DNA of 63,460 nt, filler included. It is 4 parts of 4 records of this genome, joined end to end, with 100 filler letters (N's around TTAATTAATTAA, not from the genome) between each part and the next. Parts side by side here need not be neighbours in the genome. Positions count along the whole stretch, not along the records: positions 1 to 22,640 come from SRR31156797_23087; 3 more parts are not named here. One strand, 5' to 3'. The position numbers were made by a program, and so were the translations under genes. Positions 1 to 18,400 of this stretch are shown here, in pieces; the first letter of the stretch is position 1; each line of letters begins with the position of its first letter. Under the pieces are notes generated by a model. The model saw only the letters and a program-made list of their open reading frames with translations, made no database searches and was not told the origin of the DNA.

Positions 1-558
1 GTTTTCCGCCATGGCGATATACATGGCCCAGATAACAGAAGCAGGAGGGTTGATGGTCATGGAAGTGGTGATTTTTTCGATGGGCAACCCCGCAAAAAGA
101 TCTTCCATATCCTTCAGAGTGTCGATGGCCACACCGCACTTGCCACATTCACCCCTGGCTTTGGGAGAGTCGCTGTCGTAGCCCATGAGAGTTGGCATGT
201 CAAAGGCCGTTGAAAGACCGGTCTGCCCTTCCCGGACCAGAAGATGAAACCGTCGGTTCGTATCTTCAGGGGCACCCAGACCTGCAAACATCCGCATGGT
301 CCAGAGACGACCGCGATACATGGAGGGCTGAACTCCCCTTGTGAATGGATAGTCTCCGGGAAAACCGATGTCGGTAGAAAAATCCTGCTCCCTTAGGTCC
401 GCATGCGTATAAATATCTTTAATTTCTTTGTCTGAAATCGTGGAAAACCGCTTCAACCGTTCGGGACTTTTAGAAAAAATCTTGCTGAGTTTTTTCTTCC
501 ATACCGTGTGTTTTTCATTGATGTCCTGGAAAATTTTAGGATTAAAGGTCAAAGCCAT
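1..558 (-). CDS. B12-dependent acyl-CoA mutase large (substrate-binding) subunit, isobutyryl-CoA-mutase-like; 3' end outside window
   Basis: Not in the ORF track. Manual translation from ATG 558 (GGAG RBS) gives MALTFNPK...GFPGDYPFTRGVQPSMYRGRLWTMRMFAG...GQTGLSTAFDMPTLMGYDSD...TSMTIN, which are the hallmark MCM/ICM motifs. The frame is open to position 1. Confidence 0.93.
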   Translation of the reverse strand, partial: MALTFNPKIFQDINEKHTVWKKKLSKIFSKSPERLKRFSTISDKEIKDIYTHADLREQDFSTDIGFPGDYPFTRGVQPSMYRGRLWTMRMFAGLGAPEDTNRRFHLLVREGQTGLSTAFDMPTLMGYDSDSPKARGECGKCGVAIDTLKDMEDLFAGLPIEKITTSMTINPPASVIWAMYIAMAEN

Positions 559-577
559 GTCAATCTCCTTTATACGC

Positions 578-1723
578 TCAACCTTTGATAAGGTTTCTTG
601 CCACCACCAAACGCATGATTTCGTTGGTTCCCTCATAGATCTGGCATATCTTGGCATCGCGCATGTGACGCTCCATGGGATACTCTTTGCTGTACCCGTA
701 ACCTCCCAGAACCTGCACCCCTTCAACAGCCGCCCGCATGGCCACGTCGGATGAGTACATCTTGGCCATGGCAGCCTCTTTTTCATAAGGCTTTTTATAG
801 TCCTCCAACCAAGCTGCTCGAAGGGTCAACAATTCAGCGGCGTCAAGTTCTGTTGCCATATCGGCCAGTTTCCACTGGATGGCTTGAAAGGATGAAATGG
901 GTTTACCGAACTGCTCACGGGTCTTCGCGTAAGCAACAGCGTCTTCCAGAACCGATCGGCCGATCCCGATGGCTTGGGACGCGATCCCGATTCGGCCTCC
1001 GTCCAAGGTGGTCAGCATTTGCTTGAAACCCTCCCCCTCTTTTCCAAGGAGGGCATCCGCCGGCAATCTTGCGTTTTCGAAAACCAGTTCCGCTGTCCCC
1101 GATGCCTGGATGCCCATTTTCTCTTCCACCCGCCCCACTTTGAAACCGGGAGTGTTTTCCAGATCCACTACAAAGGAACTGATGCCCTTGTGCCCTCTCT
1201 CTTTGTCAGTTACGGCAGCAATCACCGCATATCTGGCGACATTGCCGTTTGTGATGAACTTCTTCTCACCGTTGATGATCCATTCATCTCCATCTTTAAC
1301 GACAGTGGTCCGCATGCCCGCCGGATCGGAACCGGCGCTGGCCTCCGTTAATCCGTAACACCCCAGATATTCTCCGGAAGCGCAGGGCTCAAGATATTTC
1401 TTCTTCTGTTCCTCTGTTCCATAGGCATACACCGGAAAACAGTAGAGGGAATTGTTGACGCTCATGATCACTCCGGTGGAGGCGCATCCCCTAGACACCT
1501 CAATGAGGGCTAGCACGTAACTCACATAACCCATACCACCACCGCCATACTCCTCCGGTACGGCAATACCCAGCATCTTGAGTTCCCCCAGTTGATTCAC
1601 TATGTTGGTGGGATGGGCGTGGGTCTGGTCCAGTTCAGCCGCTTTCGGCCGTATCTCCGCTTCCGCAAAGCGGGCCGCCATTTCTCTCACCATCTGCTGT
1701 TCTTCGGTTAACGCAAAATCCAT
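578..1723 (-). CDS. acyl-CoA dehydrogenase (short/branched-chain-like)
   Basis: Motifs LTEASAGSD, GEKKFITNG, REQFGKPI, GGYGYSKEYPMERHMRDAKICQIYEGTNEI. Start moved to ATG 1723 (GGAGG upstream). Confidence 0.95.
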   Translation of the reverse strand: MDFALTEEQQMVREMAARFAEAEIRPKAAELDQTHAHPTNIVNQLGELKMLGIAVPEEYGGGGMGYVSYVLALIEVSRGCASTGVIMSVNNSLYCFPVYAYGTEEQKKKYLEPCASGEYLGCYGLTEASAGSDPAGMRTTVVKDGDEWIINGEKKFITNGNVARYAVIAAVTDKERGHKGISSFVVDLENTPGFKVGRVEEKMGIQASGTAELVFENARLPADALLGKEGEGFKQMLTTLDGGRIGIASQAIGIGRSVLEDAVAYAKTREQFGKPISSFQAIQWKLADMATELDAAELLTLRAAWLEDYKKPYEKEAAMAKMYSSDVAMRAAVEGVQVLGGYGYSKEYPMERHMRDAKICQIYEGTNEIMRLVVARNLIKG

Positions 1724-2023
1724 ATCTATGTGAGACCTCCTCAAAACTCAGGTTCTCGTTTCTCAAGGAACGCCGATATCTCTTTCCGAACCTCAAGGAT
1801 CAACAACCACGGCGTTAAATCATCAGTGCCGTTCATTAATACATCCGGATTCATGGCATTGATCGCCTTCTGCCGTCAGTGAGACAAAAAGATATTTGGA
1901 GGCCTGAAGGCATGGCTTGGAAATCGTTTGGAATGGGAAGAAGCCTGACCAAAAATTACCGGTTTATTCTCAATTCTTAAGCCCGGACCTCATCTTTTGT
2001 CTTCGACTTCTTGGGGCTTTCGC

Positions 2024-2422
2024 TCATTTTCCCGGCAATCCAAGACGTTCTGCAAACTCTCCAAAACCGACTTCAAGGAGCTTTTCAGGGGCCGTCAGAG
2101 AAATGAAAACGATATTCCTGTCCGCCAGCAAATCCTGCACTTTGTTAGCGAAATCTTCAAGATTCTCAGCATTTGCCAAAATCTCGAGAGAATCAGCGAA
2201 AAAAAACAGCCTCATGGGAGGAACCTCATCGGCTTTTCCTTCAGAGATCTCCCATCCGGCATCTGTTTTAACTGTATTTACAGCATAGATGTTTTCATAG
2301 TATTGTTCTAACAAAACACCGGTATGGAGATCCTGAGTGGCCTCCATACCAAGTAGCGTATTCCACACACGATCTATCACTTCCTTTAATTCACTGTTAT
2401 CAGTGACTTCAAAACCATCCAT
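2024..2422 (-). CDS. hypothetical acidic protein (~132 aa)
   Basis: Co-oriented ORF with AAAGGAG RBS before ATG 2422. No recognised family. Confidence 0.7.
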   Translation of the reverse strand: MDGFEVTDNSELKEVIDRVWNTLLGMEATQDLHTGVLLEQYYENIYAVNTVKTDAGWEISEGKADEVPPMRLFFFADSLEILANAENLEDFANKVQDLLADRNIVFISLTAPEKLLEVGFGEFAERLGLPGK

Positions 2423-2499
2423 TTTCAAACTCCTTTCTTTTTGGGTGTTCCATGGATCTTCACGACACCGGATCAGTTGGATTCAAAATCATAAGATCT

Positions 2500-3744
2500 T
2501 TATGATGAAAAATAGGTCCTGATGATGTTGTGAGCCCCGATCAGGCTTAAGACATCACTGGTTCCGTCTTCAATTAAGGACGCCCTTGAATCTCTGTAGA
2601 TTTTTTCTATGGGATACTCTCTACTCAAGCCGTACCCGCCATAAATCTGTAAAGCTTCGTCCGCATTCTTGTACGCCGCCTGGGTACAATAAACCTTCGC
2701 GGATACAGCGTATTCTATAGGCATGGGCATAGCTGTGAAAACATATTCAACGGCCGCTCGTGAGAAAGTTCTGGCAGTCTCCACTCTCACAAACATGTCA
2801 AAAAGTTTCTTTTGAATAAGTTGGTGTTGGCACAGCGGTTTGCCTCCTTGGATTCTTTCCTTTGCATATTCAAGTGCCAATTCAAAAGCCGCTCTGGCCA
2901 CTCCGGTGAACACCGAGGCCATGCCGGAATTGGCCACGCTGAGTACCTGCTGCACCCAGAATTCGTAACGTTCCGGTCCCACGAGCATGTATTCATCAGG
3001 AATTTCAACATCATCAAAGAAAAGCTCCCCCTGGGGCAGATCGATCTGACCTAACTTCTCGAGGATGGGTCCCTTGGACACTCCAGGCAAATCGAGAGGA
3101 ACAACTGCAATACCGCCCCCTTTCATGCCTTTTGATGGGTCAATCCCAAGAAAAAGCAGCGTATGGGTTGCAGTCGGCCCATTGGAAACCCATGCTGATT
3201 TCTGACCGGAGAGTATCCATTTGTTTCCATCTTTGCGCGCCTTAACATTGTGCTTTATTTTCGGATCCCTGAATGAAGGCAATCCGGCCACCAGAGAATC
3301 CGAACCGTGATTCGGGTCCGTCATCCCCCAGCAACCGACTATTTTCCCTTCAATATCTTCAACGTAAGGCTTCACCAGCTCTTCAATCAACCGTTTATTC
3401 TTGGGGGCAATGCGCAAACACCATGCCGCCGGATAGACGTCCACATCTTGAGCGAGAGCCAAACCTGCCGAACCCCACCCCATCTCTTCCCACACAATAT
3501 GGTGCTCTAACGGCCCCATTCCCAAACCGCCGAATTTCTCGGGAATGAAACTGGCGTGAAGGTCTATCTCTCTGAACTGTTTCTTGCACTCCCACCAAAG
3601 AGAATCCTTCTTGACAATGTCATGGGGGTTCATTTTGTCCAGCTTCTCACCTGCTGGCCGAAACACTTCTTTTGCAAATTTGTGAACACTGTTTTTTAAT
3701 GCCTCTTGTCGCTCCGTAAGCCTTAAATTCAGTTCCGTATACAT
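2500..3744 (-). CDS. acyl-CoA dehydrogenase family protein
   Basis: Motifs MTDPNHGSD, GQKSAWVSNG, RIQGGKPL, GGYGLSREYPIEKIYRD...IEDG. Start at ATG 3744 after AGGAGG. Confidence 0.93.
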   Translation of the reverse strand: MYTELNLRLTERQEALKNSVHKFAKEVFRPAGEKLDKMNPHDIVKKDSLWWECKKQFREIDLHASFIPEKFGGLGMGPLEHHIVWEEMGWGSAGLALAQDVDVYPAAWCLRIAPKNKRLIEELVKPYVEDIEGKIVGCWGMTDPNHGSDSLVAGLPSFRDPKIKHNVKARKDGNKWILSGQKSAWVSNGPTATHTLLFLGIDPSKGMKGGGIAVVPLDLPGVSKGPILEKLGQIDLPQGELFFDDVEIPDEYMLVGPERYEFWVQQVLSVANSGMASVFTGVARAAFELALEYAKERIQGGKPLCQHQLIQKKLFDMFVRVETARTFSRAAVEYVFTAMPMPIEYAVSAKVYCTQAAYKNADEALQIYGGYGLSREYPIEKIYRDSRASLIEDGTSDVLSLIGAHNIIRTYFSS

Positions 3745-3815
3745 AAGATCCCTCCTTTTAAACCCGCATAAAATATTGTTCGTGGTCCTTACAGATTGTT
3801 GGGGTGACCATTCAT

Positions 3816-5858
3816 TCAATCCGTGATAGATGCACTGATGATCTGGGCCACATCCAGAACCCTGATTTTGTCTTCCAGGCCTTTCTCCCTGATTTCATCG
3901 TCCAGCATTATCCTGCAATAGGGGCACACCGTCGCCAGCGTTTCAGCAGAGGTTGTCAAGAGTTGATCACAACGGATGGCGCTGATACGTTTGCCCGTTC
4001 TTTCCTCCATCCACATTCGCCCCCCGCCGGCACCACAGCAAAAACTCCTGTTCCTGTTTCTTTCGGCTTCAACGAGCGCAACCCCCCTTACAGACCGTGC
4101 AACCTGCCTCGGCGCATCGTACAGATCATTGTAACGCCCCAGGTAGCAGGAGTCGTGATAAACAACCGGCCCATTTCCATCGAACCCACGGTCAAACTTC
4201 AGGATATTTTCACGGATCGACTGCTCTATAATTTCCGTATGGTGAAACACTTTGTAATGGCCACCAAACTGTGGGTATTCATTCTTGATGGTATTGTAGC
4301 AATGGGGGCAGGCGGTGATGATCTTTTTCACGCCCAACTCATTCCAGTATGCCACATTGGTTTCCATCATCCTCTGGGCCAGGAATTCATTGCCAAGGCG
4401 GCGCGCCGTTTCACCACAGCATTTTTCTTCATTACCAAGACAGACAAATTTTATACCCGCCTTTTTCAACAAACGGACCAGGGCCAGGGACGTTTTTTTG
4501 CTCCTGTCATCGAATGAGCCGGCGCACCCCACATAGAATAGATATTCATAATTGCTTTCCTCATGGGGAATTTTCACGTCCAGCCTGTCGAACCAGTCTG
4601 CACGGCTGTTTGATGCCAAGCTCCAGGGATTGGACAGGTTTTCCATTCCCTTGTAGACCGAAGTCAACTCCTTCGGAAACCGGCTTTCTTCTTGAACCAG
4701 GTACCGGCGCATATCCACCACATGGTCTGCATGCTCAATCAATAAAGGGCAGATCTCCATACAATTGCCGCATGTTGTACAGGACCAGAGGACTTCATCC
4801 TCTATCACTTGGCCTGTCAGCATGGCGCCTTCCCAGAAATCGAGGGTTTCCCGAGCCTTGTCAGGCTTATGCTGAATCCGCTGCAGCCCCGCCCGCCACA
4901 TGAGAGGCGTCTTCGTTTTCAGATGGTCCCTGGAGTCCATGACAAGACGCTTGGGCGAAAGCGGTTTGCTGGAGATATGTGCAGGACAGTTGTCCTGGCA
5001 GCGGCCGCATTCGGTACAATTGTACATGTCGAGTGCACGCTTCCAAGATAACTCTTCAAGTCTGCCGACCCCCAGAATGAGTTTTTCCCTTTCAAAGTCC
5101 TGCTTTGCCAGGACCCCCTTTTTACTGAGTTTCCCTGCGAAAACTCCGGGGAATGAGGTAATTACGTGAAAATGCTTTCCATAGGGCAAATAGTTTAGGA
5201 AGATCAAAATCATTACCACATGCCCCCACAAACTGATCCCCTGTAGGGTAGAAGTGGATTTGGCGTCGATGGTAAATCCAAAACCCGTAAGGATACGCTG
5301 CCCGATGAGCCCCATAAAGCCACCCACTTTTTCAGGGCTTTCAGGATTGAGGATCAACAGAGTGCCGCTGTAAACAATTTCCAGCAACATCATGACAAGG
5401 ATCCACACTAAAATCAGATTCGCCTCCCAGGATAGGGTCATGCGTTCGGGTTTAACAAATACTCTTCGGCCGAGGGCCGTCAAAACACCGACAATAACCG
5501 CGAGAACAAAGAGATCTTTGAGTGGTGTAAAAATCAAACCGAGAAACGGATCATGATGGAACCCGGGCAGAGTCCAACCTTCAACAAAGCCACGACCTAC
5601 AAGCTGGATTGTGTTGATGCTTAAAACGATGAAACCCCAGAAGATCAGAATATGAGCGAGACCATGAGGAAGTTCATATCGTTTGAAAAGCCTTGTTTGG
5701 CCCAACGCGAATTTGAGCATCCGGGCCAAGCGCACACCGGGTTGATCCCATCGAACATCGTGCTGCATGGAAAAAAACGGCAGAACGCGACGAAACATGG
5801 ACAAGGCAAAACAGAACAATGCAACAAAAAGCAAGACACCCATCGCTAGAGGATTCAT
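3816..5858 (-). CDS. membrane FeS/CCG oxidoreductase (FadF/DUF224 type; likely ETF:(methyl)menaquinone oxidoreductase)
   Basis: N-terminal multi-TM domain with His residues, 2x[4Fe-4S] motifs (CTECGRCQDNCP, CTTCGNCMEICP) and two CCG domains. Directly downstream of etfBA. Confidence 0.88.
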   Translation of the reverse strand: MNPLAMGVLLFVALFCFALSMFRRVLPFFSMQHDVRWDQPGVRLARMLKFALGQTRLFKRYELPHGLAHILIFWGFIVLSINTIQLVGRGFVEGWTLPGFHHDPFLGLIFTPLKDLFVLAVIVGVLTALGRRVFVKPERMTLSWEANLILVWILVMMLLEIVYSGTLLILNPESPEKVGGFMGLIGQRILTGFGFTIDAKSTSTLQGISLWGHVVMILIFLNYLPYGKHFHVITSFPGVFAGKLSKKGVLAKQDFEREKLILGVGRLEELSWKRALDMYNCTECGRCQDNCPAHISSKPLSPKRLVMDSRDHLKTKTPLMWRAGLQRIQHKPDKARETLDFWEGAMLTGQVIEDEVLWSCTTCGNCMEICPLLIEHADHVVDMRRYLVQEESRFPKELTSVYKGMENLSNPWSLASNSRADWFDRLDVKIPHEESNYEYLFYVGCAGSFDDRSKKTSLALVRLLKKAGIKFVCLGNEEKCCGETARRLGNEFLAQRMMETNVAYWNELGVKKIITACPHCYNTIKNEYPQFGGHYKVFHHTEIIEQSIRENILKFDRGFDGNGPVVYHDSCYLGRYNDLYDAPRQVARSVRGVALVEAERNRNRSFCCGAGGGRMWMEERTGKRISAIRCDQLLTTSAETLATVCPYCRIMLDDEIREKGLEDKIRVLDVAQIISASITD

Positions 5859-5924: not shown

Positions 5925-6884
5925 TCAGGCGAATTCCTTTTTTAATTTCTCGGTCAATTCAGGGACCGCCTTGAACAAATCCTCTACCAGACAAAAGTCT
6001 GCTGTGGTGTGTATGGGCGCTTCTTCATCTTTGTTGATGGCAACGATGATTTTGCTGTTTTTCATACCAGCCATATGTTGTATCGATCCGGACAGACCTA
6101 CGGCAACATAGAGTTCAGGCGCCACTTTCTTGCCTGTTTGCCCTACCTGGAGGTCGTTTGAAACCCACCCGGAATCAACCGCAGCCCGGGTGGCGCCCAC
6201 CGCACCGTCAAACAGATCCGCAAGTTCTTCCAAAATCTTGAAATTTTCCGCGCCTGCCATTCCACGCCCTCCAGAGATAACAACTCGGGCTTCGGTGGGA
6301 TCCGGACGTTCACTCTGGGTCTCCTGCATTTCTACGAACCGCGTCTTGCCATCCCCCAACGAAATGTCCAAGGCCTCTATGGGCGTTTCCCGTCCCACAG
6401 ACTCGGCCGGGGCAAAATGGGTTCCTTGAACAGTCACAACCTTAATTTCCGTTGTTATCTCCACGTTGGCAATTGCGCTTCCGGCCCACATTTCCCGTGT
6501 AAAATCCCGCCCATCAAAGGACAGAACACCCGTGGCCATGCCTGCCTCCAGTTTGGCGGCAACCCGCGGCATGAGGTCTCTTCCTGTGGTACCGGAACTC
6601 ATGCCAACGATCTTGGCATCGCAGAATCTTGCGGCATCAGCCACGGCATGTCCCCATGTTTCCGCGGTGTAATTTTCCAGCTGGGGATCATCGGCAGTAA
6701 ATATCTTGGAAGCACCGTAATCCTTTAGGGTCTCCGCGATGCCATCCACATGGCTTCCCACAACGAGCAGATACAACTCACCGCCCAGTTTCCCGGCAGC
6801 TTCCCTGCCAAAGGTTAGGGCGTTGAGCGTAGCCCGTTTCAACTCTCCCTTCCAATGCTCTGCAACCATTAAAATACCCGGCAT
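5925..6884 (-). CDS. etfA: electron transfer flavoprotein alpha subunit
   Basis: Motifs SGGRG, GATRAAVDSG, QVGQTGKKVAPELYVAVGLSGSIQHMAGM, AINKD. Confidence 0.97.
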   Translation of the reverse strand: MPGILMVAEHWKGELKRATLNALTFGREAAGKLGGELYLLVVGSHVDGIAETLKDYGASKIFTADDPQLENYTAETWGHAVADAARFCDAKIVGMSSGTTGRDLMPRVAAKLEAGMATGVLSFDGRDFTREMWAGSAIANVEITTEIKVVTVQGTHFAPAESVGRETPIEALDISLGDGKTRFVEMQETQSERPDPTEARVVISGGRGMAGAENFKILEELADLFDGAVGATRAAVDSGWVSNDLQVGQTGKKVAPELYVAVGLSGSIQHMAGMKNSKIIVAINKDEEAPIHTTADFCLVEDLFKAVPELTEKLKKEFA

Positions 6885-6950: not shown

Positions 6951-7697
6951 CTATAAGATCTTTGCTTCCTCTTTTAATCCTTTGACCAGCCCATCCACAT
7001 CCGGAACCACATGTCCCCCTTGACGCTGCGGGGGTGCAGTAAATCCTTTGATGAGCACTTTGGGCGAAACGTCTACACCCAGTTCGGCCAGTGGCATGAT
7101 TTTGACCTCTTTTCGGTCCGCCTTTAGCACGTCGGATACTTTGGGATAGCGGGGTTCATTCAGGCGAAGATCCGTACTAATAATTCCTGGCAGATCAATC
7201 TCCACCACTTCAATGCCTCCATCCACTTCCCGATGCACTGTTGCAGTGCTGCCATTCAATTCAACTTTTGAAGCAAAACATGCCTGGCCCCAGCCCATAT
7301 GCTCGGCCAGCATTTGAGCCACCTGGTTGTCATCCATGTCAACAGCCTGTTTCCCCAGCAACACCAGATCCGGCTGTTCCTGTTCGATAATTTTGGCAAG
7401 AATCAGAGCAATGGCATTGGAATCAAGTTGATCTTCGGTTTTCACCAGAATGCCCCGATCCGCACCCATGGCAAGCCCCGCTCTGATTTCGGTGATTGAA
7501 GCGTCATTACCTATACTGACAACGAACACTTCTCCTCCTCTGTCTTTTTTGATGCGCAATGCTTCTTCGATCGCGATTTCATCAAAAGGATTGATCTTAA
7601 AGTTCATGCTGGATAGCTCAATGCCCGACCCATCCGGCTTAAGTACAATTTTCATGTCAGGGTCTGTGACGCGTTTGGCCGTTACTAAGATCTTCAC
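6951..7697 (-). CDS. etfB: electron transfer flavoprotein beta subunit
   Basis: Motifs INPFDEIAIEEA, LAMGAD, GKQAVD, REVDGG, DLRLNEPRY. Confidence 0.97.
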   Translation of the reverse strand: MKILVTAKRVTDPDMKIVLKPDGSGIELSSMNFKINPFDEIAIEEALRIKKDRGGEVFVVSIGNDASITEIRAGLAMGADRGILVKTEDQLDSNAIALILAKIIEQEQPDLVLLGKQAVDMDDNQVAQMLAEHMGWGQACFASKVELNGSTATVHREVDGGIEVVEIDLPGIISTDLRLNEPRYPKVSDVLKADRKEVKIMPLAELGVDVSPKVLIKGFTAPPQRQGGHVVPDVDGLVKGLKEEAKIL

Positions 7698-7775: not shown

Positions 7776-9353
7776 CTACCGCACCCGTCTTGCCTCGTTT
7801 TTCCAGTATCGCGCTCTGAGTTCCCGTTTGAGAATTTTTCCATAGGGACTCTTGGGCAACTCATCGACAAAATCGACGGACTTTGGTCGCTTGTACCCAG
7901 CCATTTTACCCCTGCAAAATTCAAGGATCTCTTCTTCACTTGCCTGCTGATCCTTTTTCAGTACAGTGACAGCCTTGCCCGCCTCTCCCCATTTCTGATC
8001 CGGCACCCCTATCACGGAGACCTCGCTGACAAAGGGATGTTCAAGAATTATCTCTTCGATCTCCCTGGGATATACATTTGACCCGCCACTGATATACATA
8101 TCTTTGGTCCGGTCCATGACAAAAAGGTAGCCCTGTTCATCAAGGTAACCCACATCTCCTGTGTGAAGCCAACCACCTTTGAGGGTTTTCGCGGTTTCCT
8201 CAGGCCTCTCCCAATATCCCTGCATCACCGTTTCGCCCCGAATACAGATTTCTCCGGATTGGCCTACAGGGACCCTGTTTTCACTTTCATCCAGAATCGT
8301 TATTTCGATTCCCGTCCTCGGGCACCCTGCCGATCCCAGTCTTTTGATCTCATCATCTGTTCCCGAATAGACATGTTCTTCACGCGGGAGAAAAGTACCC
8401 GTCATGGGAGATTCACCTTGGCCGAAAATCTGAACGAAAATCTGGCCGCATTTCTTGAGTGTAAATTTGAGGTCTTCCACATACATGGCGGACCCGCCAT
8501 AGGCAATGTATTGCAAAGAACTGATATCGTATGCGTCGATATCAGGGGACTCAACGAACATCTTGATCATGGTTGGCACCATGAACATGTTGGTCACCTT
8601 CCACTTTTCGACGGTCTCGGCCACATGCTTTGGATCAAAACTCAAGGAATCGAAGATGACATTGGTGGCTCCTTTTGCAGCGATGGGAAGGGCGTGAAAA
8701 CCGGCGCCATGTGACAAAGCGCCTACATGTAGAGCAACGTCTTTGGCCGTTGTTGGAACCAGGTCCGCCAGATACATCAGGATTACCGCCATAAGATTCC
8801 CATGTGAAAGCATGGCGCCTTTGGGTCTTCCGGTGGTCCCTGAGGTATAGAACAGCCACGCCAGATCGTCTTTTTCCACATCAACGGTCTGGTCGTCGGT
8901 GGTCCGGTACTTCTCAATCAACGCCTCATAATCATGATCGCCTGGAGCCGGGTTTTTGAGGCAAATGAAATGCTTCACACCCGGGACTTGATCACGGATG
9001 GTTTTCACCATGTCTTTCATGTTTTCCGCAAATACAAAAGCAGCACATCGGGGGTCATTCAAGTGATAGACAACCTCTCCGGCAAAAAAACGGAAATTCA
9101 ACGGAACGATGACGGCCCCGATCTTGAAACAGGCGAACATGACCTCAATATACTCCGGGCAATTCCCGGACAGTATTCCGACCCGATCACCCTTTTGGAC
9201 TCCAAGGGCTTTTAAGGCACTGGCGAAGGAATCGGTGCGCACATTCGCTTCATTGTAGTTAACGGTTCTATTACCTTGAACAAGAGCAAGCTGATCCGGG
9301 TAATGCTTTGCCGACTGTCTAAGGAGAGAACCTATATTTATCCTCTTGGGCAT
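7776..9353 (-). CDS. AMP-forming acyl/aryl-CoA ligase
   Basis: Motifs YTSGTTGRPKG, FGQGE, GWLHTGD, DRTKDMYISGG, PKSPYGKILK. Start at ATG 9353 after GGAGG. Confidence 0.93.
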   Translation of the reverse strand: MPKRINIGSLLRQSAKHYPDQLALVQGNRTVNYNEANVRTDSFASALKALGVQKGDRVGILSGNCPEYIEVMFACFKIGAVIVPLNFRFFAGEVVYHLNDPRCAAFVFAENMKDMVKTIRDQVPGVKHFICLKNPAPGDHDYEALIEKYRTTDDQTVDVEKDDLAWLFYTSGTTGRPKGAMLSHGNLMAVILMYLADLVPTTAKDVALHVGALSHGAGFHALPIAAKGATNVIFDSLSFDPKHVAETVEKWKVTNMFMVPTMIKMFVESPDIDAYDISSLQYIAYGGSAMYVEDLKFTLKKCGQIFVQIFGQGESPMTGTFLPREEHVYSGTDDEIKRLGSAGCPRTGIEITILDESENRVPVGQSGEICIRGETVMQGYWERPEETAKTLKGGWLHTGDVGYLDEQGYLFVMDRTKDMYISGGSNVYPREIEEIILEHPFVSEVSVIGVPDQKWGEAGKAVTVLKKDQQASEEEILEFCRGKMAGYKRPKSVDFVDELPKSPYGKILKRELRARYWKNEARRVR

Positions 9354-9578
9354 GCCCAAAACCTCCATGAATATTTCCCAAACGAAAGGGCAAGAATCTC
9401 TCTACTCCAAAGATTTTTCATTCCTTTCAGGTATTCTTAAAATGTGTCACAAAAATCCAAGTGTTCCGTATATCCGGCATCCCAAGCCCAAATGGAGAGA
9501 CAGGCGGCGCTTTGCTCAAAGGAGCTTTCCAAATGCTTCCAACTGACCTGAGATACGATAGTGTCCGGATTTGGAACA

Positions 9579-9624: not shown

Positions 9625-10998
9625 TTATTCGGAGTGATATTCTTTCAAGTGATTCCGAACCTGAGGTGTTGTGACTCCCGGGACATAGTATTTATCGTAA
9701 AAATCACAATCCACATGATGCGCAATCAATTGCATCTGTCCCCCGATGGGTCCGAAATGAACCGGGGCGCGACCGTAATTGTCATAGTAGTATTTAATCG
9801 TCGCCCCGACGGCTTCGATTACCCAGTCCGGGTATTTGCTGGTTGGATTCTCTTTAAAGATCTCGACTGTATCAGCCTTATACGGACCTTTGTTCTTCAA
9901 AATCCAGTTATTCTTCTCATCGTAGCAACCACCACCAGACCATTTTTCATCGACGATGGCACGGCGGGATGATTCCATTGGATCTTCGATCCAGGGCCTG
10001 AAAAATCCTTCGATGACACCCGGAAATCCCAGAACCCGGGTCGACGCGTGGCCCATATCGTCGCCCTCTATGACATCACACTTGAAGCCAAGGCCTTTCG
10101 CATAGTCCGGAAAAGCGCCCAGGAACAGCGGTTGAGACCAGGCTCCAAACATGGAGTTTCCAAGACCAATGGAGGCGCAGGTACTCCGCATGTTCATACA
10201 TGCCATTCCGGTGCTCACCGGCATCAACTCTTTGATGACTTCCTCGAATTGCCATATGGTAAAGGGAATCTCCAGCATCCCTGGTTTCACCCATTCTTCA
10301 GTGTTGCAGGGTTGCTTGGTCTTATCATCAATGATATACCACCCGGCGTTGAGAAAGGCAGTTGCCATGAAGTTGATGTATTCCCTTGAATTGTCACAGA
10401 AAGGCCAGAATATGACCTGCCCGGGCTGCCCCCAGTTCCATTGCATCCATTGCCCCATCAGTTTTCCGGGAACCCCCCAGTCGATGTCGAGATCCTCACG
10501 GTCCATCAACTTGACTTTTCCATCATTGTACCATTCCCAAATCTTCTTGTAGTCACCATCTCCTTCGATCTCGACGGGTTTCTCTCTGGCCATGGGCTGG
10601 TTCATGTACCAAACGGCGTCATCGTCAATAAAAACCAACTGCATCCACTTCAGGTCATTGCAGGGTCTGGGCGTTGTAAAGCCCTGGTAGTTCAACATCG
10701 TCGGACCACCTTGCGCATTGTCGATGTCGCCCATTGCGTACCCGGTGGGTCCCAAGGCAGCCCAGCAAAGCAGCGCCTTTTCCCAATCGGCAACCGGAAC
10801 TGGATCTTTGGAGCCTTTCCATGGGACGAAACCCTCAGGAGAGCTACGTTTTACTTTTCTGGCAGGAGTCACATCTTCTTGCCCCGAGGTGGTATAATTG
10901 CCCATACCGATTCGATGGGATCTGCCCCTACAGAGGGTGTCAAAATAGGTTCCGCCCGTTTCCCAAGCCTTTTTTATCATTTCGATCTTTTTTGACAT
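9625..10998 (-). CDS. uncharacterised 457-aa protein, probable extended nitroreductase-superfamily (FMN) fold
   Basis: Strong AAGGAGGAG RBS. RGRSHR resembles the RRSxR FMN-binding motif and GMACMNMRSTCASIGLG resembles the G..QN..LxA..LGLG motif of nitroreductases. The C-terminal HHVDCDFYDKYY segment is shared with the 22310-22639 paralog. Confidence 0.65.
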   Translation of the reverse strand: MSKKIEMIKKAWETGGTYFDTLCRGRSHRIGMGNYTTSGQEDVTPARKVKRSSPEGFVPWKGSKDPVPVADWEKALLCWAALGPTGYAMGDIDNAQGGPTMLNYQGFTTPRPCNDLKWMQLVFIDDDAVWYMNQPMAREKPVEIEGDGDYKKIWEWYNDGKVKLMDREDLDIDWGVPGKLMGQWMQWNWGQPGQVIFWPFCDNSREYINFMATAFLNAGWYIIDDKTKQPCNTEEWVKPGMLEIPFTIWQFEEVIKELMPVSTGMACMNMRSTCASIGLGNSMFGAWSQPLFLGAFPDYAKGLGFKCDVIEGDDMGHASTRVLGFPGVIEGFFRPWIEDPMESSRRAIVDEKWSGGGCYDEKNNWILKNKGPYKADTVEIFKENPTSKYPDWVIEAVGATIKYYYDNYGRAPVHFGPIGGQMQLIAHHVDCDFYDKYYVPGVTTPQVRNHLKEYHSE

Positions 10999-11156: not shown

Positions 11157-12650
11157 TTAAGAAGACGCTACTGCCACAAGATCGTCCTCTTCACGAGCAG
11201 CTTGTATGTGGACGAAACAACCGGGATCAGAGCCCAAGTAATTGCCGGTATAGGCGTATGCCCTCGCGCGACATCCACCGCATTGTGATCCATATTGACA
11301 CTCACCGCATGCGCCGTCGTGCTGTCCTCTGTCACGAATCTGCTTAAGAATCGGGCTGTTTTCCCACACATCGGTCATTTTCTTTTCCCTGATGTTGCCC
11401 AAAGGAACGGGTAAAAAAGTACAAGGCTTCATATTCCCTTGAGGGTCCATTCCCAGGTAATAGGAGCCGGCCATGCATCCGCCGGACAGTTTCAACAAGC
11501 TCTGACAACCGTGCCCTATGGTTGGATCATAGTAATGTGTGGGCAAAACTTCCCCGGAGCCTTCAGTTAAGCTTGGGAGCATTGCTGCCTGTGGTGCAAA
11601 TGATGTGAAACCCATATGGCGGGTATGCTTGGATTTTCGAAGAAGCCGGTAGTGCAGCCATTCTTTCTGGCCAGCGTTCAGATCCAAGTTGAAATCTCCC
11701 CTGCCCGTGGGGACAAAGTTATAGACGATCATCCAATCCGCCCCTAAACGGTCTCCCAAGTCCATTATTTTGGGAATTTCCAGATAGGTTTCCTGCGTTG
11801 CAGTGGCTGATATGATAACCTCCAGCCCTTCATCAAGGCTGTTGCGGATTCCCTGAACAGCTTTGTCAAACAGGCCGGGCGAATTACGGAAGGCGTCATG
11901 GACACTGGCATTGGCGGCATCCAAACTGATGTGTAGGAGACAGACACCTGAATCTTTTATCTCCTTCACCTTCTCTTTTGTAAGAAGTGAACCGTTGGTA
12001 GCCAGATAGCATGTAATTCCCCGGCTTCCGGCGTAAGCGGCGATTTCAAGGAAATCCTCCCTGATCAGACTCTCCCCTCCCGTAAACGCAATCGCCGATA
12101 CGCCAGCATTTGCAAACTGATCGATAGCCGCCTTCGCTTCTCCTGTTGTCAGTTCCTGACCGCCGGCCCTCTTGCATTTCAAAGAATCCGTATAGCAGTG
12201 CTTGCAAGATCCCAGATTGCACTCTGAGGTGAATTCCCACACCACCAGGATGGGTGCTCCCAAAATGAACGGTCTTCGAATGCCGAAATTGGACATCCCA
12301 CGCATGGAATTGATCAAAATCCGCTTTTGATATGGATCGGGCTCGCCTCCGAAGCCCTTTTCCATTGATTCGGCAATATTCCCTTTGAGGGTGTTGCACG
12401 CATCACAGGTATCCGTCCGATTCCCCAAATAGGCATTTATGGCAGCGTCGATACGCTTCTCGCCACATTGAATGCAATGTTCTTTGTTGTCCAAACTGAT
12501 CCGAGTAAGGCTTTTCAGACCGGTGAATGACGGAATGGTCCCCAAGGCCCGGTTAACCGGATCAACTTTTCTTCTTTTTTCGACAGCAAGTTTTCCCATA
12601 CATTTACCCCCAAACCTTAACGTCTTTTTACAATGAATTTCAGGCGCCAT
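11157..12650 (-). CDS. radical SAM/SPASM domain protein with N-terminal Cys-pair extension
   Basis: VVWEFTSECNLGSCKHCY (CX4CX2C), FTGGE, ATNG, ISLD, and SPASM CMAG...PC...CGECQYGSQCGGCRARAY...DPGC. Alternative start at ATG 12599. Confidence 0.92.
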   Translation of the reverse strand: MAPEIHCKKTLRFGGKCMGKLAVEKRRKVDPVNRALGTIPSFTGLKSLTRISLDNKEHCIQCGEKRIDAAINAYLGNRTDTCDACNTLKGNIAESMEKGFGGEPDPYQKRILINSMRGMSNFGIRRPFILGAPILVVWEFTSECNLGSCKHCYTDSLKCKRAGGQELTTGEAKAAIDQFANAGVSAIAFTGGESLIREDFLEIAAYAGSRGITCYLATNGSLLTKEKVKEIKDSGVCLLHISLDAANASVHDAFRNSPGLFDKAVQGIRNSLDEGLEVIISATATQETYLEIPKIMDLGDRLGADWMIVYNFVPTGRGDFNLDLNAGQKEWLHYRLLRKSKHTRHMGFTSFAPQAAMLPSLTEGSGEVLPTHYYDPTIGHGCQSLLKLSGGCMAGSYYLGMDPQGNMKPCTFLPVPLGNIREKKMTDVWENSPILKQIRDRGQHDGACGECQYGSQCGGCRARAYAYTGNYLGSDPGCFVHIQAAREEDDLVAVASS

Positions 12651-12694: not shown

Positions 12695-13036
12695 TTAACT
12701 TAATTCAAACCAGTTTGCTCCCTTGTCCCGCTTCACAAATGATACCTTGTGGCCTATCTCAACCCTTTTTTCTTTTTCATTTGTAAAACGTGCCGGAACC
12801 ACCAAACCCTCATCCAGCATCACCTCGCCAAACGCATAGGGTGCCTGGTCCGCGAATTCTTCAAAGGGCATACGAATCATGGTAAAGGAATAAACCTTCC
12901 CCCCTGTCCACGCGTTCACCTCAGCAAAACCGGTGTTGCCACAGGCAGGGCAAAAATATCTGGGGGGAACATATTGCTTCTCGCAACCCTTGCATTGAAG
13001 CAGGGTCAGTTTTGCATCAGAATCTCTCTGGCTCAT
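12695..13036 (-). CDS. DUF35 Zn-ribbon/OB-fold thiolase partner protein
   Basis: Motifs CKGC...PPRYFCPACG, GKVYSFT, APY. Immediately downstream of the thiolase. Confidence 0.92.
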   Translation of the reverse strand: MSQRDSDAKLTLLQCKGCEKQYVPPRYFCPACGNTGFAEVNAWTGGKVYSFTMIRMPFEEFADQAPYAFGEVMLDEGLVVPARFTNEKEKRVEIGHKVSFVKRDKGANWFELS

Positions 13037-13042
13037 TTTCAA

Positions 13043-14218
13043 TCATCCCCTTTTGAAGATATGAACAGTACAAACCGCACCGGTTCCACCCGCATTGTGC
13101 GTCAGACCGATTTCCGCGTCTTTCACCTGGTTTTCATGTTCGCCTCTCAGTTGCTTCACAATCTCGTAGGCCTGGCCGCAACCGGTTGCGCCCACCGGGT
13201 GTCCTTTTGAAATGAGACCTCCACTGGGATTGATGGGAATCTTGCCGTCCACTTGGGTTAGTCCATCCTCCACGGCGGGCCCACCTTTACCCTTTTCAAA
13301 GAACCCCAGATCCTCACTGTCAATGATCTCGGCGATGGTAAAGCAGTCGTGCAGTTCCACCACATCGATATCACTGGGCTTAAGTCCGGCCATCCCAAAG
13401 GACTCCCTTGCCGCAACAGCGGTTGCAGGCAAACCCGTAATCGTCCCTTTGTCATTGATGGTCTCGTGGGTGGTACGAAAGCCTCTTCCGATACCGGAAC
13501 CGATAATATTGACGGGCTTTTTGGTATACTCCTTTGCGCGATCCGAGCTACAGAGAACCAGAGCGGCCCCACCGTCGGACATGGGACAGCAATCATAAAG
13601 CTTCAAGGGGTCTGATACCAATCTGGATTCCAGCACATCCTCCAGCGTTATTTGGTGCCTGAACCGCGCTCTTGGGTTTAAGACGCTGTTATTGTGGTTC
13701 TTTACGGAAACCATGCCCAATTGCTCAATGGTGGTTCCGTACTCATACATGTGTCGATTGGCTACCAGGGCAAAGAAACCAGGATAGGTATAGCCGGAAT
13801 GGATTTCAGAAACAGGATCCATGGCCGCAGCAAGGGCCCGGGTGGCGATAGGTGTCGATACGGAGGTCATCTTCTCGACACCGCCCACCAGCACCATGTC
13901 ATGTACTCCGGATGCAATGAGCTGATAGCCCAGCCTTAGACCGATGGAAGAAGAACAGCAGGCGCCTTCCACCTTGACGGCACCGATGTTTTCATTGAGC
14001 CCCAGGCTGTAAGCAAGCATGGGTGCCAGGGTCTCCTGTCCAACGAGCATTCCTGCAACGTAGTTCCCAAGAAACAGCGCTTCAATGTCCTTTCTCTCAA
14101 TCCCGGCATCGCGAATAGCCGCATCCAATGCTCGTACGCCTATCTCTTCAATGGTCATCTCCTCCCCTAAAACCCCGAATTTAGTGGAACCGATGCCAAT
14201 GACCGAAACATCTCTCAT
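13043..14218 (-). CDS. thiolase (SCP2/archaeal/BbsB-like type)
   Basis: Motifs EGACCSS, KNH, DCCPMSDG, ELHDCF, NPSGGLISKGHPVGATG, THNAGG. Confidence 0.94.
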   Translation of the reverse strand: MRDVSVIGIGSTKFGVLGEEMTIEEIGVRALDAAIRDAGIERKDIEALFLGNYVAGMLVGQETLAPMLAYSLGLNENIGAVKVEGACCSSSIGLRLGYQLIASGVHDMVLVGGVEKMTSVSTPIATRALAAAMDPVSEIHSGYTYPGFFALVANRHMYEYGTTIEQLGMVSVKNHNNSVLNPRARFRHQITLEDVLESRLVSDPLKLYDCCPMSDGGAALVLCSSDRAKEYTKKPVNIIGSGIGRGFRTTHETINDKGTITGLPATAVAARESFGMAGLKPSDIDVVELHDCFTIAEIIDSEDLGFFEKGKGGPAVEDGLTQVDGKIPINPSGGLISKGHPVGATGCGQAYEIVKQLRGEHENQVKDAEIGLTHNAGGTGAVCTVHIFKRG

Positions 14219-14617: not shown

Positions 14618-16663
14618 CTAGATCTGGCGCGCCGCGTAGTTGGCCGTATGGATGGCCTTTTCTATCTTCTCCGGACCCGCGCAATCCCCGATTTCGTGAA
14701 ACTCAACCCCTTTTCCCACCAACTGCTCATAGAGATCCCTATTTGAAGATCTGCCGGCCGCCACAATCACGGTGTCAACGGATACAGCGTCTTCATTCCC
14801 TTCGCCATCCACATATGTCAGGGTACCATTCGTTATCTCTTTTACTTTGACCTGGGCAAGAACCCTTACTCCCGCCTCTGCCATGAACTCGTTTAAGACA
14901 ATAAAACGGAGGATGTGGGAGTAAGGTGGCCAACCGATTGTCATGGGATCCCCTTCCTCCAGCAAAGTCACTTCCTTTACTTTTTCAGGATCCACAATCT
15001 CAAGTCCGCGTTCCTCCGGAGCCTTGTAATATTTCTTATAGCCCGCCTCCGGCATCTTCTTGCCCAGTCTGGCCAGCGTAACCGCTGCCTCCGCGCCGTA
15101 CGCGCCGCCAAGAACAGCTACCCGTTTCCCAACGGTTTCGTCCCCGGCCAAGAAGGCATCAAGGGAAATAACATTCGAGCCATTGATACCCGGGATGTCC
15201 GGAATGATCTGCTTGGATCCTGTGGCGAGAACAACCGCATCAGGATTCTTTTCCCTGATTAGATCTTCCGTAACGTCAGTGTTGAGTTTGACCTGGATAT
15301 CCATCTCCGCCATTCTCTTGGATAACCACCTGGAGATATTGAGGAGTTCCCGGGTATAGAGTCTGGGATAGTTGGAGGCGAGGTGCAGGTAACCGCCAAG
15401 CTTGTCGGCTTTTTCATATAAGGAAACCTTGTGGCCCCTCAGGGTCGCCACCCTGGCAAATTCCATTCCGGCAGGTCCTCCGCCCACGACCAGAATGTTT
15501 TTTGCCTTTCTTGCGACCGGCATTCTTCCTTCTTCCCACGTATTGTCCCGGTCGTATTCAAAATTAACGGCGCACCGGCTGGGCCTGTTTGCAAAATCGT
15601 CTTCGAGGCAGGTATTACATGCAATGCACTGACGGATGTCGTCGTACCGCCCCTCAAGGGTCTTTTTTGCGAAATCAGCGTCGGCCACAGAGCCGCGGCC
15701 AATGCCCACGATATCGAAGTTGTCTTCTTCAATCATTTTAACGGCCAAGCGGCCGTCGTTGATGCGCCCCAAACCTGCTACCGGAACTTCGACCACATTC
15801 TTTATCGCCTCTGCCATATAGGTCCACACGCCTCTCGGCTCATACATCTCCGGGATAACAGTCGTGAAATGCTCAAAAACCCCGCAGGTTACGTCAAACA
15901 TGTCACATCCCGCATCTTCCATGGCGGGGGCGATGAATTTACAGAAATCGTCAATGTTATAGCCGCCTTCCATGTACTCGTCGCCTGCCACCCGACAACA
16001 TATGGGGAAATCCCCAACCGCTTCCCTCATCTTGATCAACAACTGGCGGATAAACTCCACTCTTCGATCCCAGTCTCCACCCCATTTGTCATCCCGGTGG
16101 TTCGTATAGGGTGACATGAACTGCTGGGGCAGAAAGCCGTGTGAACAGTGGATCAGGACCGCTTCAAACCCTGCATTCTGAGCTCTCACGGCTGCTTTGG
16201 CATAATCATCGATGATGCCCCAGATCTCTTCTTCCGTAAGAGCTCTGGGGGGAATATTGGGAGGAAAGGGCATGGGTGGCGAGGTATCCGAAGGGGCCAG
16301 CGCCTCCTGTTTAACGTGTTTGGGCAATAGCAACGGATTGCACTCCCTGCCGGCGTGATGCAGCTGGATCATGGCTTTGGCACCACCTGCATGGATCGCT
16401 TCAACCAGTTCATAAAGTGCGACGCCCTGGTTATCATCGAATATGCCAACCGTCCGAGGAAAGAGTTTCGTGGTCTCGCTAATGACCGCGGCCTCCACGC
16501 AGTACAAGCCCCATCCCCCTTTGGCCCGTCTGTAAGTGGCATCGATCAAGGGCTTGCCGGGAAGGCAATCTTCTCCAACAATGTTTGCTATCATCGGGGG
16601 AGCATAGAGCCTGTTTTTTACCTCCAAATTCCGGATCTTGATTGGGTCGGATATCTTCGCCAT
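14618..16663 (-). CDS. Old Yellow Enzyme family FMN/[4Fe-4S]/FAD oxidoreductase (FadH/BaiCD/Ncr-like architecture)
   Basis: TIM-barrel motifs QLHHAGR, HCSHGFL and NHRDDKWGG; FeS motif CIACNTC...CAVN; FAD motif VVGGGPAGMEFA; C-terminal IGDC. Confidence 0.93.
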   Translation of the reverse strand: MAKISDPIKIRNLEVKNRLYAPPMIANIVGEDCLPGKPLIDATYRRAKGGWGLYCVEAAVISETTKLFPRTVGIFDDNQGVALYELVEAIHAGGAKAMIQLHHAGRECNPLLLPKHVKQEALAPSDTSPPMPFPPNIPPRALTEEEIWGIIDDYAKAAVRAQNAGFEAVLIHCSHGFLPQQFMSPYTNHRDDKWGGDWDRRVEFIRQLLIKMREAVGDFPICCRVAGDEYMEGGYNIDDFCKFIAPAMEDAGCDMFDVTCGVFEHFTTVIPEMYEPRGVWTYMAEAIKNVVEVPVAGLGRINDGRLAVKMIEEDNFDIVGIGRGSVADADFAKKTLEGRYDDIRQCIACNTCLEDDFANRPSRCAVNFEYDRDNTWEEGRMPVARKAKNILVVGGGPAGMEFARVATLRGHKVSLYEKADKLGGYLHLASNYPRLYTRELLNISRWLSKRMAEMDIQVKLNTDVTEDLIREKNPDAVVLATGSKQIIPDIPGINGSNVISLDAFLAGDETVGKRVAVLGGAYGAEAAVTLARLGKKMPEAGYKKYYKAPEERGLEIVDPEKVKEVTLLEEGDPMTIGWPPYSHILRFIVLNEFMAEAGVRVLAQVKVKEITNGTLTYVDGEGNEDAVSVDTVIVAAGRSSNRDLYEQLVGKGVEFHEIGDCAGPEKIEKAIHTANYAARQI

Positions 16664-16940: not shown

Positions 16941-16956
16941 AGCAAAGTGTGTGCCA
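16941..16956 (-). promoter_or_regulatory. sigma-54 (-24/-12) promoter for the catabolic operon
   Basis: Minus strand reads TGGCAC-ACACT-TTGCT, an exact consensus match, ~280 nt upstream of the OYE start. Confidence 0.85.
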
Positions 16957-17976: not shown

Positions 17977-18351
17977 ATGAACAACATCATGAAAATAAAC
18001 GAAAACATATCAAACAATCAGGAAACAGGGCTCGTACAGATCTATACAAACCCAATGGGAAGAATAAATTTCGCGCCTTATGGTCTGGCCTTTCGTGCTT
18101 CGGGTTATGGGCTTCGGTCTTTGATTACCCGTTTTGTGCATCACGAATTGAAGGCCGGGGAAACGGTTGCTTTGAAGCTTCTTGCGTCCGAACTCACAAT
18201 TGATGCCTCAGCAATCGATGCAAATTCCTCGAATTGGGTTTTTGCTGAATCCGCAGTTAAAAAGGCGTTTCAGAATGCTGTGCAGACAGCTTCTTCGGGT
18301 GAATACGATTTGGTGATTTTGGATGGTGTTCTTGAATTGGTTTCAAACTGA
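17977..18351 (+). pseudogene. degenerate/truncated cob(I)alamin adenosyltransferase (CobA/BtuR)-like fragment
   Basis: GLVQIYT...GLAFRASGYG and YDLVILD match CobA/BtuR, but the P-loop (GxGKGKTT) is replaced by NPMGRINF and the protein stops shortly after YDLVILD. Confidence 0.6.
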
Positions 18352-18400
18352 CTCATTTATAATGCCCTATCAAAAAATACAAAGGAGGACGTCCATCAAA

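Follow-up and report, generated by a model that had tools for sequence, protein, structure and literature searches.

A CX4CX2C subclade of Gms-type radical SAM/SPASM proteins encoded in a bacterial acyl-CoA operon

Radical S-adenosylmethionine (SAM) enzymes share a three-cysteine motif, canonically CX3CX2C, that binds a SAM-cleaving [4Fe-4S] cluster, and those with a SPASM domain carry seven or eight further cysteines, C-terminal to the barrel, for two auxiliary [4Fe-4S] clusters. Bacterial homologues of one such enzyme, Gms, are taken as markers of bridged membrane lipids (branched glycerol monoalkyl glycerol tetraethers, brGMGTs), which serve as environmental proxies. Here we describe a Gms-family radical SAM/SPASM gene on the minus strand, at 11157..12650, of a 63,460-nucleotide stretch of DNA (hereafter, the window). 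Open reading frame (ORF) calling, Pfam matches and homologue alignment place its product in a subclade in which the cluster motif reads CX4CX2C. Its sequence suggests a rare bacterial branch that has split from the lipid cross-linking radical SAM enzymes of archaea, and its genomic context points to a new job.

Gms, discovered only in 2024, joins the two chains within a tetraether lipid by a C–C bridge (Garcia et al. 2024, Li et al. 2024). Examples given in these papers are Thermococcus guaymasensis WP_062369926.1, P. furiosus PF0647 and Methanothermococcus okinawensis METOK_RS04425. Gms is described as a SPASM enzyme that resembles AhbD but has an additional N-terminal domain of ~100 amino acids, which forms a hydrophobic lipid pocket (PMC11186832, PMC11214058). 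This domain corresponds to COG4001 and comprises six helices, and the radical SAM motif is given as the canonical CX3CX2C (Li et al. 2024, PMC11186832). According to Garcia et al. (2024), Gms occurs with tes or mss, whose products make its membrane-spanning lipid substrate, and is often clustered with them or with gmm.

The cluster motif and family placement

The ORF at 11157..12650 encodes 497 amino acids as called. The true start is probably at 12599, giving 480 amino acids, because the closest homologue, P0001, begins at the residue that matches M18 and a purine-rich GGGGGT lies upstream of that ATG. Read from the sequence, the cluster motif is CNLGSCKHC, within the surrounding residues EFTSE-C-NLGS-C-KH-C-YTD. 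Its codons occupy 12195..12221 on the minus strand: TGC at 12221–12219 (C144), AAT CTG GGA TCT, TGC at 12206–12204 (C149), AAG CAC, and TGC at 12197–12195 (C152). An earlier note on this DNA had read the motif as CX4CX2C, one residue longer than canonical. That reading is borne out, with the codons lying within 2 nt of where the note had put them. Also as reported there, the translated ORF contains two N-terminal cysteine pairs, CIQC (C59/C62, codons 12476–12465) and CDAC (C82/C85, codons 12407–12396), and the segment FGIRRPFILGAPILVVW (residues 122–138, positions 12287–12237).

The protein is laid out as an N-terminal six-helix domain with CxxC...CxxC (~19–122), a radical SAM core (139–297) and a SPASM domain (392–478). 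Pfam matches the core to Radical_SAM (PF04055) with 82.6 bits over residues 139–297 (cutoff 29.5), and the C-terminal part to SPASM (PF13186) with 36.1 bits over residues 392–452 (cutoff 21.5). In an AlphaFold model with a predicted local distance difference test score (pLDDT) of 85, six helices at residues 19–122, mostly at pLDDT 85–98, precede the barrel, and this N-terminal domain aligns with that of the archaeal homologues. The fold of the model matches the SPASM enzymes PqqE, SkfB, SuiB, CteB and anSME (Foldseek E 4.8e-15 to 1.1e-9). In the homologue alignments, the seven SPASM cysteines C392, C410, C448, C451, C457, C460 and C478 are invariant, as are G191, G192 and E193 of the GGE motif FTGGES (residues 189–194). 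The four N-terminal cysteines and the three cluster cysteines are invariant across the CX4 clade, including members at only 40–48% identity.

The longer motif is shared by the closest relatives. Of the 120 homologues listed by a search through 5.8 billion clustered proteins, all eight of the closest (P0001–P0008, 41–83% identity) have CX4CX2C at the aligned site. The remaining 112 of the 120 (36–45% identity) have the canonical CNLxCxHC; apparent CX4 matches in P0031 and P0034 fall in the N-terminal region, not at the radical SAM motif. In the alignment, a single residue is cleanly inserted, relative to CNLxCxHC, after the first cluster cysteine and before the second. Because this insertion is common to all eight closest homologues, an assembly artefact can be dismissed as the source of the motif, and the extra residue, which the earlier note had allowed might be private to this assembly, is instead conserved across the clade. 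The same spacing occurs in the copy at a related locus (L002, described below), in P0146 (CNLGTCPHC) and in P0170. A maximum-likelihood tree of 127 rows unites the nine CX4 rows in one clade (SH-aLRT 100), for which a single state change is enough; the tree came from a quick search with long-branch warnings and does not settle where the clade stands with respect to the outgroup.

A profile of the clade, searched against 1.84 billion representatives at 50% identity, returned three top matches at 752, 713 and 588 bits, all CX4, followed by a drop to 435 bits, where the motif is canonical. Among the 150 representatives listed, five have the CX4 spacing, namely these top three together with P0205 (CNIKTCKQC) and P0228 (CNIGTCEYC). 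The last two are 32% identical to the window protein, so the longer spacing could have several origins or could characterise a deeper lineage. All relatives recovered by a metagenome scan with the radical SAM alignment were canonical or more distant, and the scan added no CX4 locus. The variant is kept in at least 12 sequences. Comparison of 12 CX4 with 105 canonical sequences yielded about a dozen clade-specific fixed residues, including T190 in the GGE strand, H240, Y373 and M393 beside the first SPASM cysteine; the clade also has an added DPxN at residues 30–33. Judged from the alignment, the fixed residues adjoin functional elements. The alignments and searches mark CX4CX2C as rare but conserved, and exclude assembly error or chance as its source.

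A motif with this spacing is able to carry a SAM-cleaving cluster, since it does so in OxsB, an active, structurally solved radical SAM enzyme (PMC9204698). We infer that the window protein is likewise catalytically competent. The RadicalSAM.org resource, as described in PMC9477430, lists CX4CX2C only for Megacluster-4-11 and places the SPASM enzymes in Megacluster-1-1. The CX4 clade is therefore put forward here as a SPASM-class addition to the short list of radical SAM enzymes with non-canonical cysteine spacing.

The canonical homologues are ~470 amino acids long and share the N-terminal domain. Most of the 112 carry no source name; the few that do are largely archaeal (Thermoplasmatales, Bathyarchaeia, Methanomethylicia, Heimdallarchaeota, Archaeoglobales). 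Two members of the CX4 clade have been recorded before. Dataset S4 of Garcia et al. (2024, PMC11214058) enters Desulfotruncus arcticus DSM 17038 as a bacterial Gms homolog with "Mss no, Tes no", and gives the same entries for Peptococcaceae bacterium HOT.MB2.86 (MCL6478211.1). MCL6478211.1 is our P0146, and at the 90% level it clusters with P0003 of D. arcticus. P0003 and the window protein share 48% identity. In D. arcticus a single protein, the CX4 one, fits the family profile beginning with its N-terminal domain. The Gms clade of Garcia et al. was described as AhbD-like proteins of at least 400 amino acids, apart from the AhbD outgroups, with BLASTP matches to Tg-Gms of 1e-80 or better. Because D. 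arcticus and P0146 are listed in Dataset S4, the CX4 clade probably sits inside the literature's "Gms homologs", a placement made indirectly, through these relatives and the description of the N-terminal domain. Together, the named archaeal homologues, the Dataset S4 relatives and the six-helix domain support the earlier note's suggestion of a mostly archaeal radical SAM/SPASM group that includes lipid C–C cross-linkers. Our search found no paper on the CX4 clade, its motif or its gene partnership; the supplementary tree of Garcia et al. may bear on the placement of D. arcticus. The only literature trace of the clade is the two supplementary-table rows, which treat its members as Gms homologs.

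No curated NCBIfam model passes its cut-off. The best match is AhbD (TIGR04545), with 251.8 bits over residues 135–479 against the 500 required, so the protein does not group with this characterised maturase; such a grouping would have spoken against the reading of the earlier note. NirJ2 (237.6 bits) and NirJ1 (196 bits) score lower still; AhbD, NirJ2 and TIGR04053 rank first, and the tetrapyrrole-type scores are about half or less of cut-offs of 500–650 bits. PqqE (109.6 bits against 381) and MftC (134.7 against 265) also fall below. A relationship of the window protein to Tes was considered and rejected, since in a PDB sequence search the GDGT-MAS structure 7TOL matched weakly (E 6.4e-4).

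The operon and its counterparts in other genomes

The radical SAM gene lies within a ~17-kb run of minus-strand genes, next to a gene at 9625..10998 (−) that encodes a 457-amino-acid protein of predicted nitroreductase fold belonging to no Pfam or NCBIfam family. Three further loci with CX4 orthologues, L001–L003 in genomes G001–G003, came from a scan of species-representative genomes. These genomes are Desulfotruncus arcticus (a non-pathogenic sulfate reducer available in culture), a Thermodesulfobacteriota metagenome-assembled genome (MAG) and an Ammonifex MAG (G003). The nitroreductase-fold gene directly adjoins the CX4 gene in all four loci, that is, in the window and in each of the three related genomes, and in L001 the two genes share overlapping stop and start codons. 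A second paralogue of the nitroreductase-fold gene flanks the radical SAM gene on its opposite side in L001 and L003, and ~10 kb away in G002. The related loci also carry genes for an acyl-CoA dehydrogenase (ACAD) that we call ACAD1 (70–85% identity), a small protein of ~130 amino acids (48–56% identity), electron-transfer flavoprotein (ETF) and its Fe-S partner, CoA ligases, a thiolase with a DUF35 protein, reductases of the old yellow enzyme (OYE) type, DUF362 and DUF2148 Fe-S proteins and sigma-54 activators. None of the four loci (the 63-kb window and L001–L003) contains a tes, mss or B12-radical SAM gene. The odd position of the gene in an acyl-CoA operon is thus itself conserved, which argues for a function other than membrane-lipid cross-linking.

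Loci of the canonical relatives look different. Among 80 metagenome loci, all holding canonical or more distant relatives, none has an ORF that matches the profile of the nitroreductase-fold family; 53 of these hold a full canonical member, of which 29 extend at least 1.5 kb on both sides and 13 at least 4 kb. Another radical SAM gene lies near the canonical gene in 7 of the 12 longer loci examined, two of these extra genes being of the B12-binding Gmm type, and ACAD or ETF genes were found in none of the 12. In L025 a Tes homologue (E 2.6e-150 to 7TOL) is directly upstream of the canonical gene. Garcia et al. describe lipid-biosynthetic clustering of this kind. In the Ammonifex MAG, a CX4 copy and a separate canonical copy (CNLRCQHC) occur together. 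On this sequence evidence the two types are paralogues, and they likely have separate roles.

Several further features of these genomes were noted. The canonical paralogue of G003 (L138 3934–5421) adjoins a gene for an ADP-forming acyl-CoA synthetase, and the same type of gene occurs in L042, ~1.5 kb downstream of the canonical copy there. Genes for DUF362 and DUF2148 (ferredoxin-domain) proteins stand immediately beside the CX4 gene in L002 (11645–14588) and L003 (11432–12679 and 16265–17035) and are absent from the window; their products are possible electron donors for the radical SAM enzyme. Tes-family proteins (Zn_ribbon_HMPTM plus radical SAM) are encoded at L139 5972–8649 in G001 and L140 6575–8565 in G002, each gene paired with one for a SAM methyltransferase. 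The pair is conserved in these two bacteria; in D. arcticus a gene for a C_GCAxxG_C_C protein stands between its members.

The model of the 457-amino-acid neighbour has a pLDDT of 81. Its best VIA-align match is 8cqs_A (Z 14.2, root-mean-square deviation 2.7 over 178 residues), and all 50 matches listed belong to the nitroreductase superfamily, including the azoline oxidases ThcOx, BmdC and McbC. The top Foldseek matches are also nitroreductases, though weak (E 1.7e-3), and the nitroreductase model PF00881 of Pfam does not match the protein. Within the family, R26 and R29 of an N-terminal arginine motif are invariant, a GLG-containing helix includes a stretch resembling QN..LA.EA.GLG, and an invariant HH...H...H set lies near the C-terminus. 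As modelled, the protein has a nitroreductase fold and presumably binds flavin (flavin mononucleotide). The family is rare, with 25 clusters by word-based search and members in 15 of 401 genomes of the phylum of G002; the ESM Atlas holds hypothetical clusters only, one of them with PF00881 in 16% of its members. The subgroup that accompanies the radical SAM gene has its own insertions and fixed residues (G39 in an ~18-residue hairpin, D173-W174, Y150, W156 and W392), which are missing from a subgroup of ~420-amino-acid proteins. A complex prediction for the radical SAM and nitroreductase-fold proteins, run without alignments, gave ipSAE values of 0.02 and 0.00, which is evidence neither way. 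At 22325–22639 (−) the window also contains a remnant of a second nitroreductase-fold gene, ~105–118 amino acids corresponding to residues ~338–455, with the N-terminal two thirds missing; it is most like the D. arcticus "B" paralogue (48.6% identity).

Domain searches assign most of the other genes of the run, all on the minus strand, to acyl-CoA metabolism. The first gene (14618..16663) encodes an Fe-S flavoenzyme of the FadH/NCR class with OYE and pyridine-nucleotide-disulphide domains. It is followed by an SCP-x-type thiolase (13043..14218) and its partner, a DUF35/ChsH2-type OB-fold protein (12695..13042). Beyond the radical SAM and nitroreductase-fold genes come an AMP-forming acyl-CoA ligase (7776..9368), ETF beta (6951..7697), ETF alpha (5925..6884), an Fe-S/CCG-domain oxidoreductase that is the likely acceptor of ETF electrons (3816..5858), ACAD1 (2500..3819), a small protein of 134 amino acids (2024..2428) and a second ACAD of the butyryl/acryloyl-CoA type (578..1744). 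The start of a methylmalonyl-CoA-mutase-family gene (B12 acyl-CoA mutase, 1..786) is cut by the window edge; it hints that the operon continues, and at a carbon-skeleton rearrangement of branched chains. No PqqD/RRE domain was matched in the radical SAM protein itself or in any of the 19 + 29 window ORFs scanned, in agreement with the earlier note, which had seen no such gene nearby.

The 134-amino-acid protein has no Pfam match, even at E values up to 5. Its relatives (L001 12861–13250, L003 14153–14551 and L137 8439–8945) always lie near ACAD1 or a nitroreductase-fold gene. The ESM Atlas offers a weak lead to SCP2, a lipid carrier (0.85; 27% of members), and a 142-amino-acid ORF in L002 has a sub-threshold SCP2 match (E 0.0069), again a lead only. 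The sequence TGGCAC-N5-TTGCT, which we take to be the sigma-54 −24/−12 consensus, has its only zero-mismatch match in the window at 16941..16956 (−), ~280 bp ahead of the gene that opens the operon. Among the genes of the 63-kb window, none for a sigma-54 activator was noticed; L001–L003 each have one or two beside the cluster. Rfam gave no match anywhere in the window, and we therefore place no riboswitch before the operon.

Outside the operon, genes for a CbbQ/NorQ-type AAA+ ATPase and then an 800-amino-acid VWA-domain protein lie at 18323–21770 (+), divergent from it. They make up a MoxR-type chaperone pair, one that could serve a metalloenzyme. Genes of the URO-D family, which includes MtaA/methyltransferase-like proteins, are found at 22792–24045, 27457–28665 and 35637–36731 (all −). 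They stand amid a sugar-type ATP-binding cassette transporter and regulators of the hybrid periplasmic-binding/AraC type, with one of the LacI type.

Competing explanations

There is a real chance that the CX4 clade has a new function. We favour a Gms-type enzyme that performs O2-independent C–H activation on a hydrophobic acyl substrate together with the adjacent flavoprotein, and we regard the chances of this explanation as evenly balanced. A small bacterial Gms subclade would have gained one residue between the first two cluster cysteines, along with about a dozen fixations near the active site, left the membrane-lipid context of Gms, and joined a sigma-54-type catabolic cluster for a CoA-activated carboxylic acid. 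The enzyme would cleave SAM reductively and direct the resulting 5'-deoxyadenosyl radical at a hydrophobic chain bound in the N-terminal domain, removing hydrogen from one of the chain's unactivated sp3 carbons. This step, which would need no O2, could activate or functionalise the chain by desaturation, rearrangement or C–C chemistry. The two auxiliary clusters would couple it to the nitroreductase-fold protein, clusters and flavoprotein together handling the electrons, and the product could then enter the ACAD/ETF/thiolase beta-oxidation-type steps encoded alongside. A hydrophobic small-molecule substrate is suggested by the retained lipid-type N-terminal domain, an acyl-CoA or free acid by the operon content, and hydrogen abstraction from an unactivated carbon by the chemistry of the Gms family. 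New chemistry in a divergent homologue of a lipid radical SAM enzyme has a precedent in the step from the methylase Gmm to the desaturase Ted, on inert carbons (bioRxiv 10.1101/2025.10.20.683597).

Several observations weigh against this proposal, which is built on the sequences, genomic contexts and models of clade members. At 13 nitroreductase-fold loci from other genomes of the phylum of G002, no Gms-like gene lies within ~9 kb, so the flavoprotein family as a whole can do without this enzyme. ACAD1 and the OYE-type reductase match generic classes only (short/medium-chain ACADs and NCR/FadH, respectively). Elsewhere in G001 and G002 there are Tes-family relatives (38–39% identity, 209 and 196 bits), so a supply of membrane-spanning lipid is possible in these two genomes. 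Finally, stoichiometric use of SAM would be costly for a catabolic pathway of an anaerobe unless SAM were used catalytically, which is not known of SPASM enzymes.

The cost of SAM would be lessened if the enzyme were a maturase. It would then modify the nitroreductase-fold protein, by post-translational modification or cofactor formation, much as anSME matures sulfatases, and the modified protein would be the real catabolic enzyme; a one-off maturation would spare SAM on every turnover. The strict adjacency of the pair in four of four loci, the stop/start overlap in L001 and the insertions and fixed residues peculiar to the associated nitroreductase-fold subgroup all fit such a role, and many SPASM enzymes, among them the structural matches PqqE, SkfB, SuiB, CteB and anSME, act on peptides or proteins. 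We nevertheless consider a maturase unlikely. The subgroup-specific residues include no conserved Cys, Ser or Gly of the kind expected as a modification target, L001, L003 and G002 have two nitroreductase-fold paralogues and one of the two in the window is a mere remnant, and what the enzyme keeps is the Gms-type N-terminal helical domain, which is described as a lipid pocket in Gms, not an RRE (PMC11214058, PMC11186832). That same domain, the conservation of all cluster ligands, and the placement of D. arcticus and P0146 in the Gms clade by Garcia et al. would suit a true Gms orthologue that cross-links the alkyl chains of a bacterial membrane-spanning lipid of the brGMGT type, its place in the operon reflecting lipid remodelling or being incidental. 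The Tes-family relatives in G001 and G002 add to this case. However, they are just 38–39% identical to a real Tes homologue, and they stand beside methyltransferases far from the locus. G003 has no Tes-family relative above 44 bits and does have its separate canonical Gms-like paralogue. Dataset S4 itself enters both CX4 relatives as "Mss no, Tes no". With a catabolic neighbourhood in four of four loci that never includes tes, mss or B12-radical SAM genes, unlike canonical loci, and with fixed substitutions at active-site elements, a true orthologue seems decidedly improbable.

An enzyme of the AhbC/AhbD/NirJ type, acting on a tetrapyrrole by oxidative decarboxylation or side-chain removal, would explain why AhbD (251.8 bits), NirJ2 (237.6) and NirJ1 (196) are the best NCBIfam matches, and URO-D-family genes do occur elsewhere in the window. 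Yet these scores are about half or less of the curated 500–650-bit cut-offs, the operon holds no other haem or d1 genes, and the URO-D-like genes lie 10–24 kb off beside sugar-binding/AraC regulators and are not conserved in L001–L003. AhbD, moreover, is described as being without the ~100-amino-acid N-terminal domain (PMC11214058). We judge this explanation very improbable. Barely credible is a degenerate, pseudo-radical-SAM protein, made unable to cleave SAM by its longer motif. The departure from CX3CX2C and a score of 189.9 bits to the NCBIfam "pseudo-SAM/SPASM" model TIGR04347 (cut-off 525) speak for it. Against it, the cluster cysteines, the GGE motif and the auxiliary-cluster cysteines are invariant among sequences only 40–48% identical, the variant persists in at least a dozen sequences, and CX4CX2C is functional in OxsB (PMC9204698).

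Returning to O2-independent C–H activation, a more specific form of it is attractive but quite unlikely. In this form, the CX4 enzyme would act with its nitroreductase-fold partner as a hitherto unrecognised O2-independent system on alkyl chains that are inert, branched or of isoprenoid type, opening them to beta-oxidation in anaerobes. Substrates could include acids from archaeal or bacterial membrane-spanning lipids, a biosynthetic radical SAM enzyme having been recruited for catabolism, and the B12 acyl-CoA mutase and FadH-like reductase would process branched or unsaturated products. If a catabolic, C–H-activating radical SAM enzyme does work with this flavoprotein, it would be a new strategy for the anaerobic breakdown of unreactive alkyl chains, and it would provide a first function for a nitroreductase-fold family that lacks a Pfam model. 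More broadly, some of the proteins counted as "Gms homologs" carry an altered motif, are paralogous to canonical copies and are encoded in a catabolic setting. The CX4 clade should be left out when GMGT producers are inferred from genes.

Comparison with known systems

It is useful to contrast the window protein with the described enzymes that it most resembles. Like Gms, it has an AhbD-like radical SAM core and a SPASM domain with two auxiliary-cluster motifs, an extra N-terminal helical domain of ~100 amino acids (here with six predicted helices) and a length of ~470–480 amino acids. It differs in its CX4CX2C motif, which is CX3CX2C in Gms (PMC11186832). Relative to the canonical homologues, the CX4 clade has about a dozen fixed residues and a short deletion in the N-terminal domain. 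Moreover, the CX4 genes never stand beside tes, mss or gmm, with which Gms genes are often clustered; they always stand beside genes for the nitroreductase-fold protein and acyl-CoA catabolism.

AhbD (TIGR04545) and NirJ are the best-scoring curated families for the radical SAM/SPASM core. Unlike AhbD, however, the window protein has an N-terminal extension of ~120 amino acids and no tetrapyrrole context, and it scores about half the cut-off or less. The SPASM fold is shared with anSME, PqqE, SkfB, SuiB and CteB. In contrast to anSME and the SPASM maturases, there is no RRE/PqqD, precursor peptide gene or sulfatase, and the scores are far below the family cut-offs. OxsB shares the use of CX4CX2C for a SAM-cleaving cluster (PMC9204698). 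It is otherwise unrelated, being B12-dependent and without a SPASM domain, and the spacing that the two have in common is convergent.

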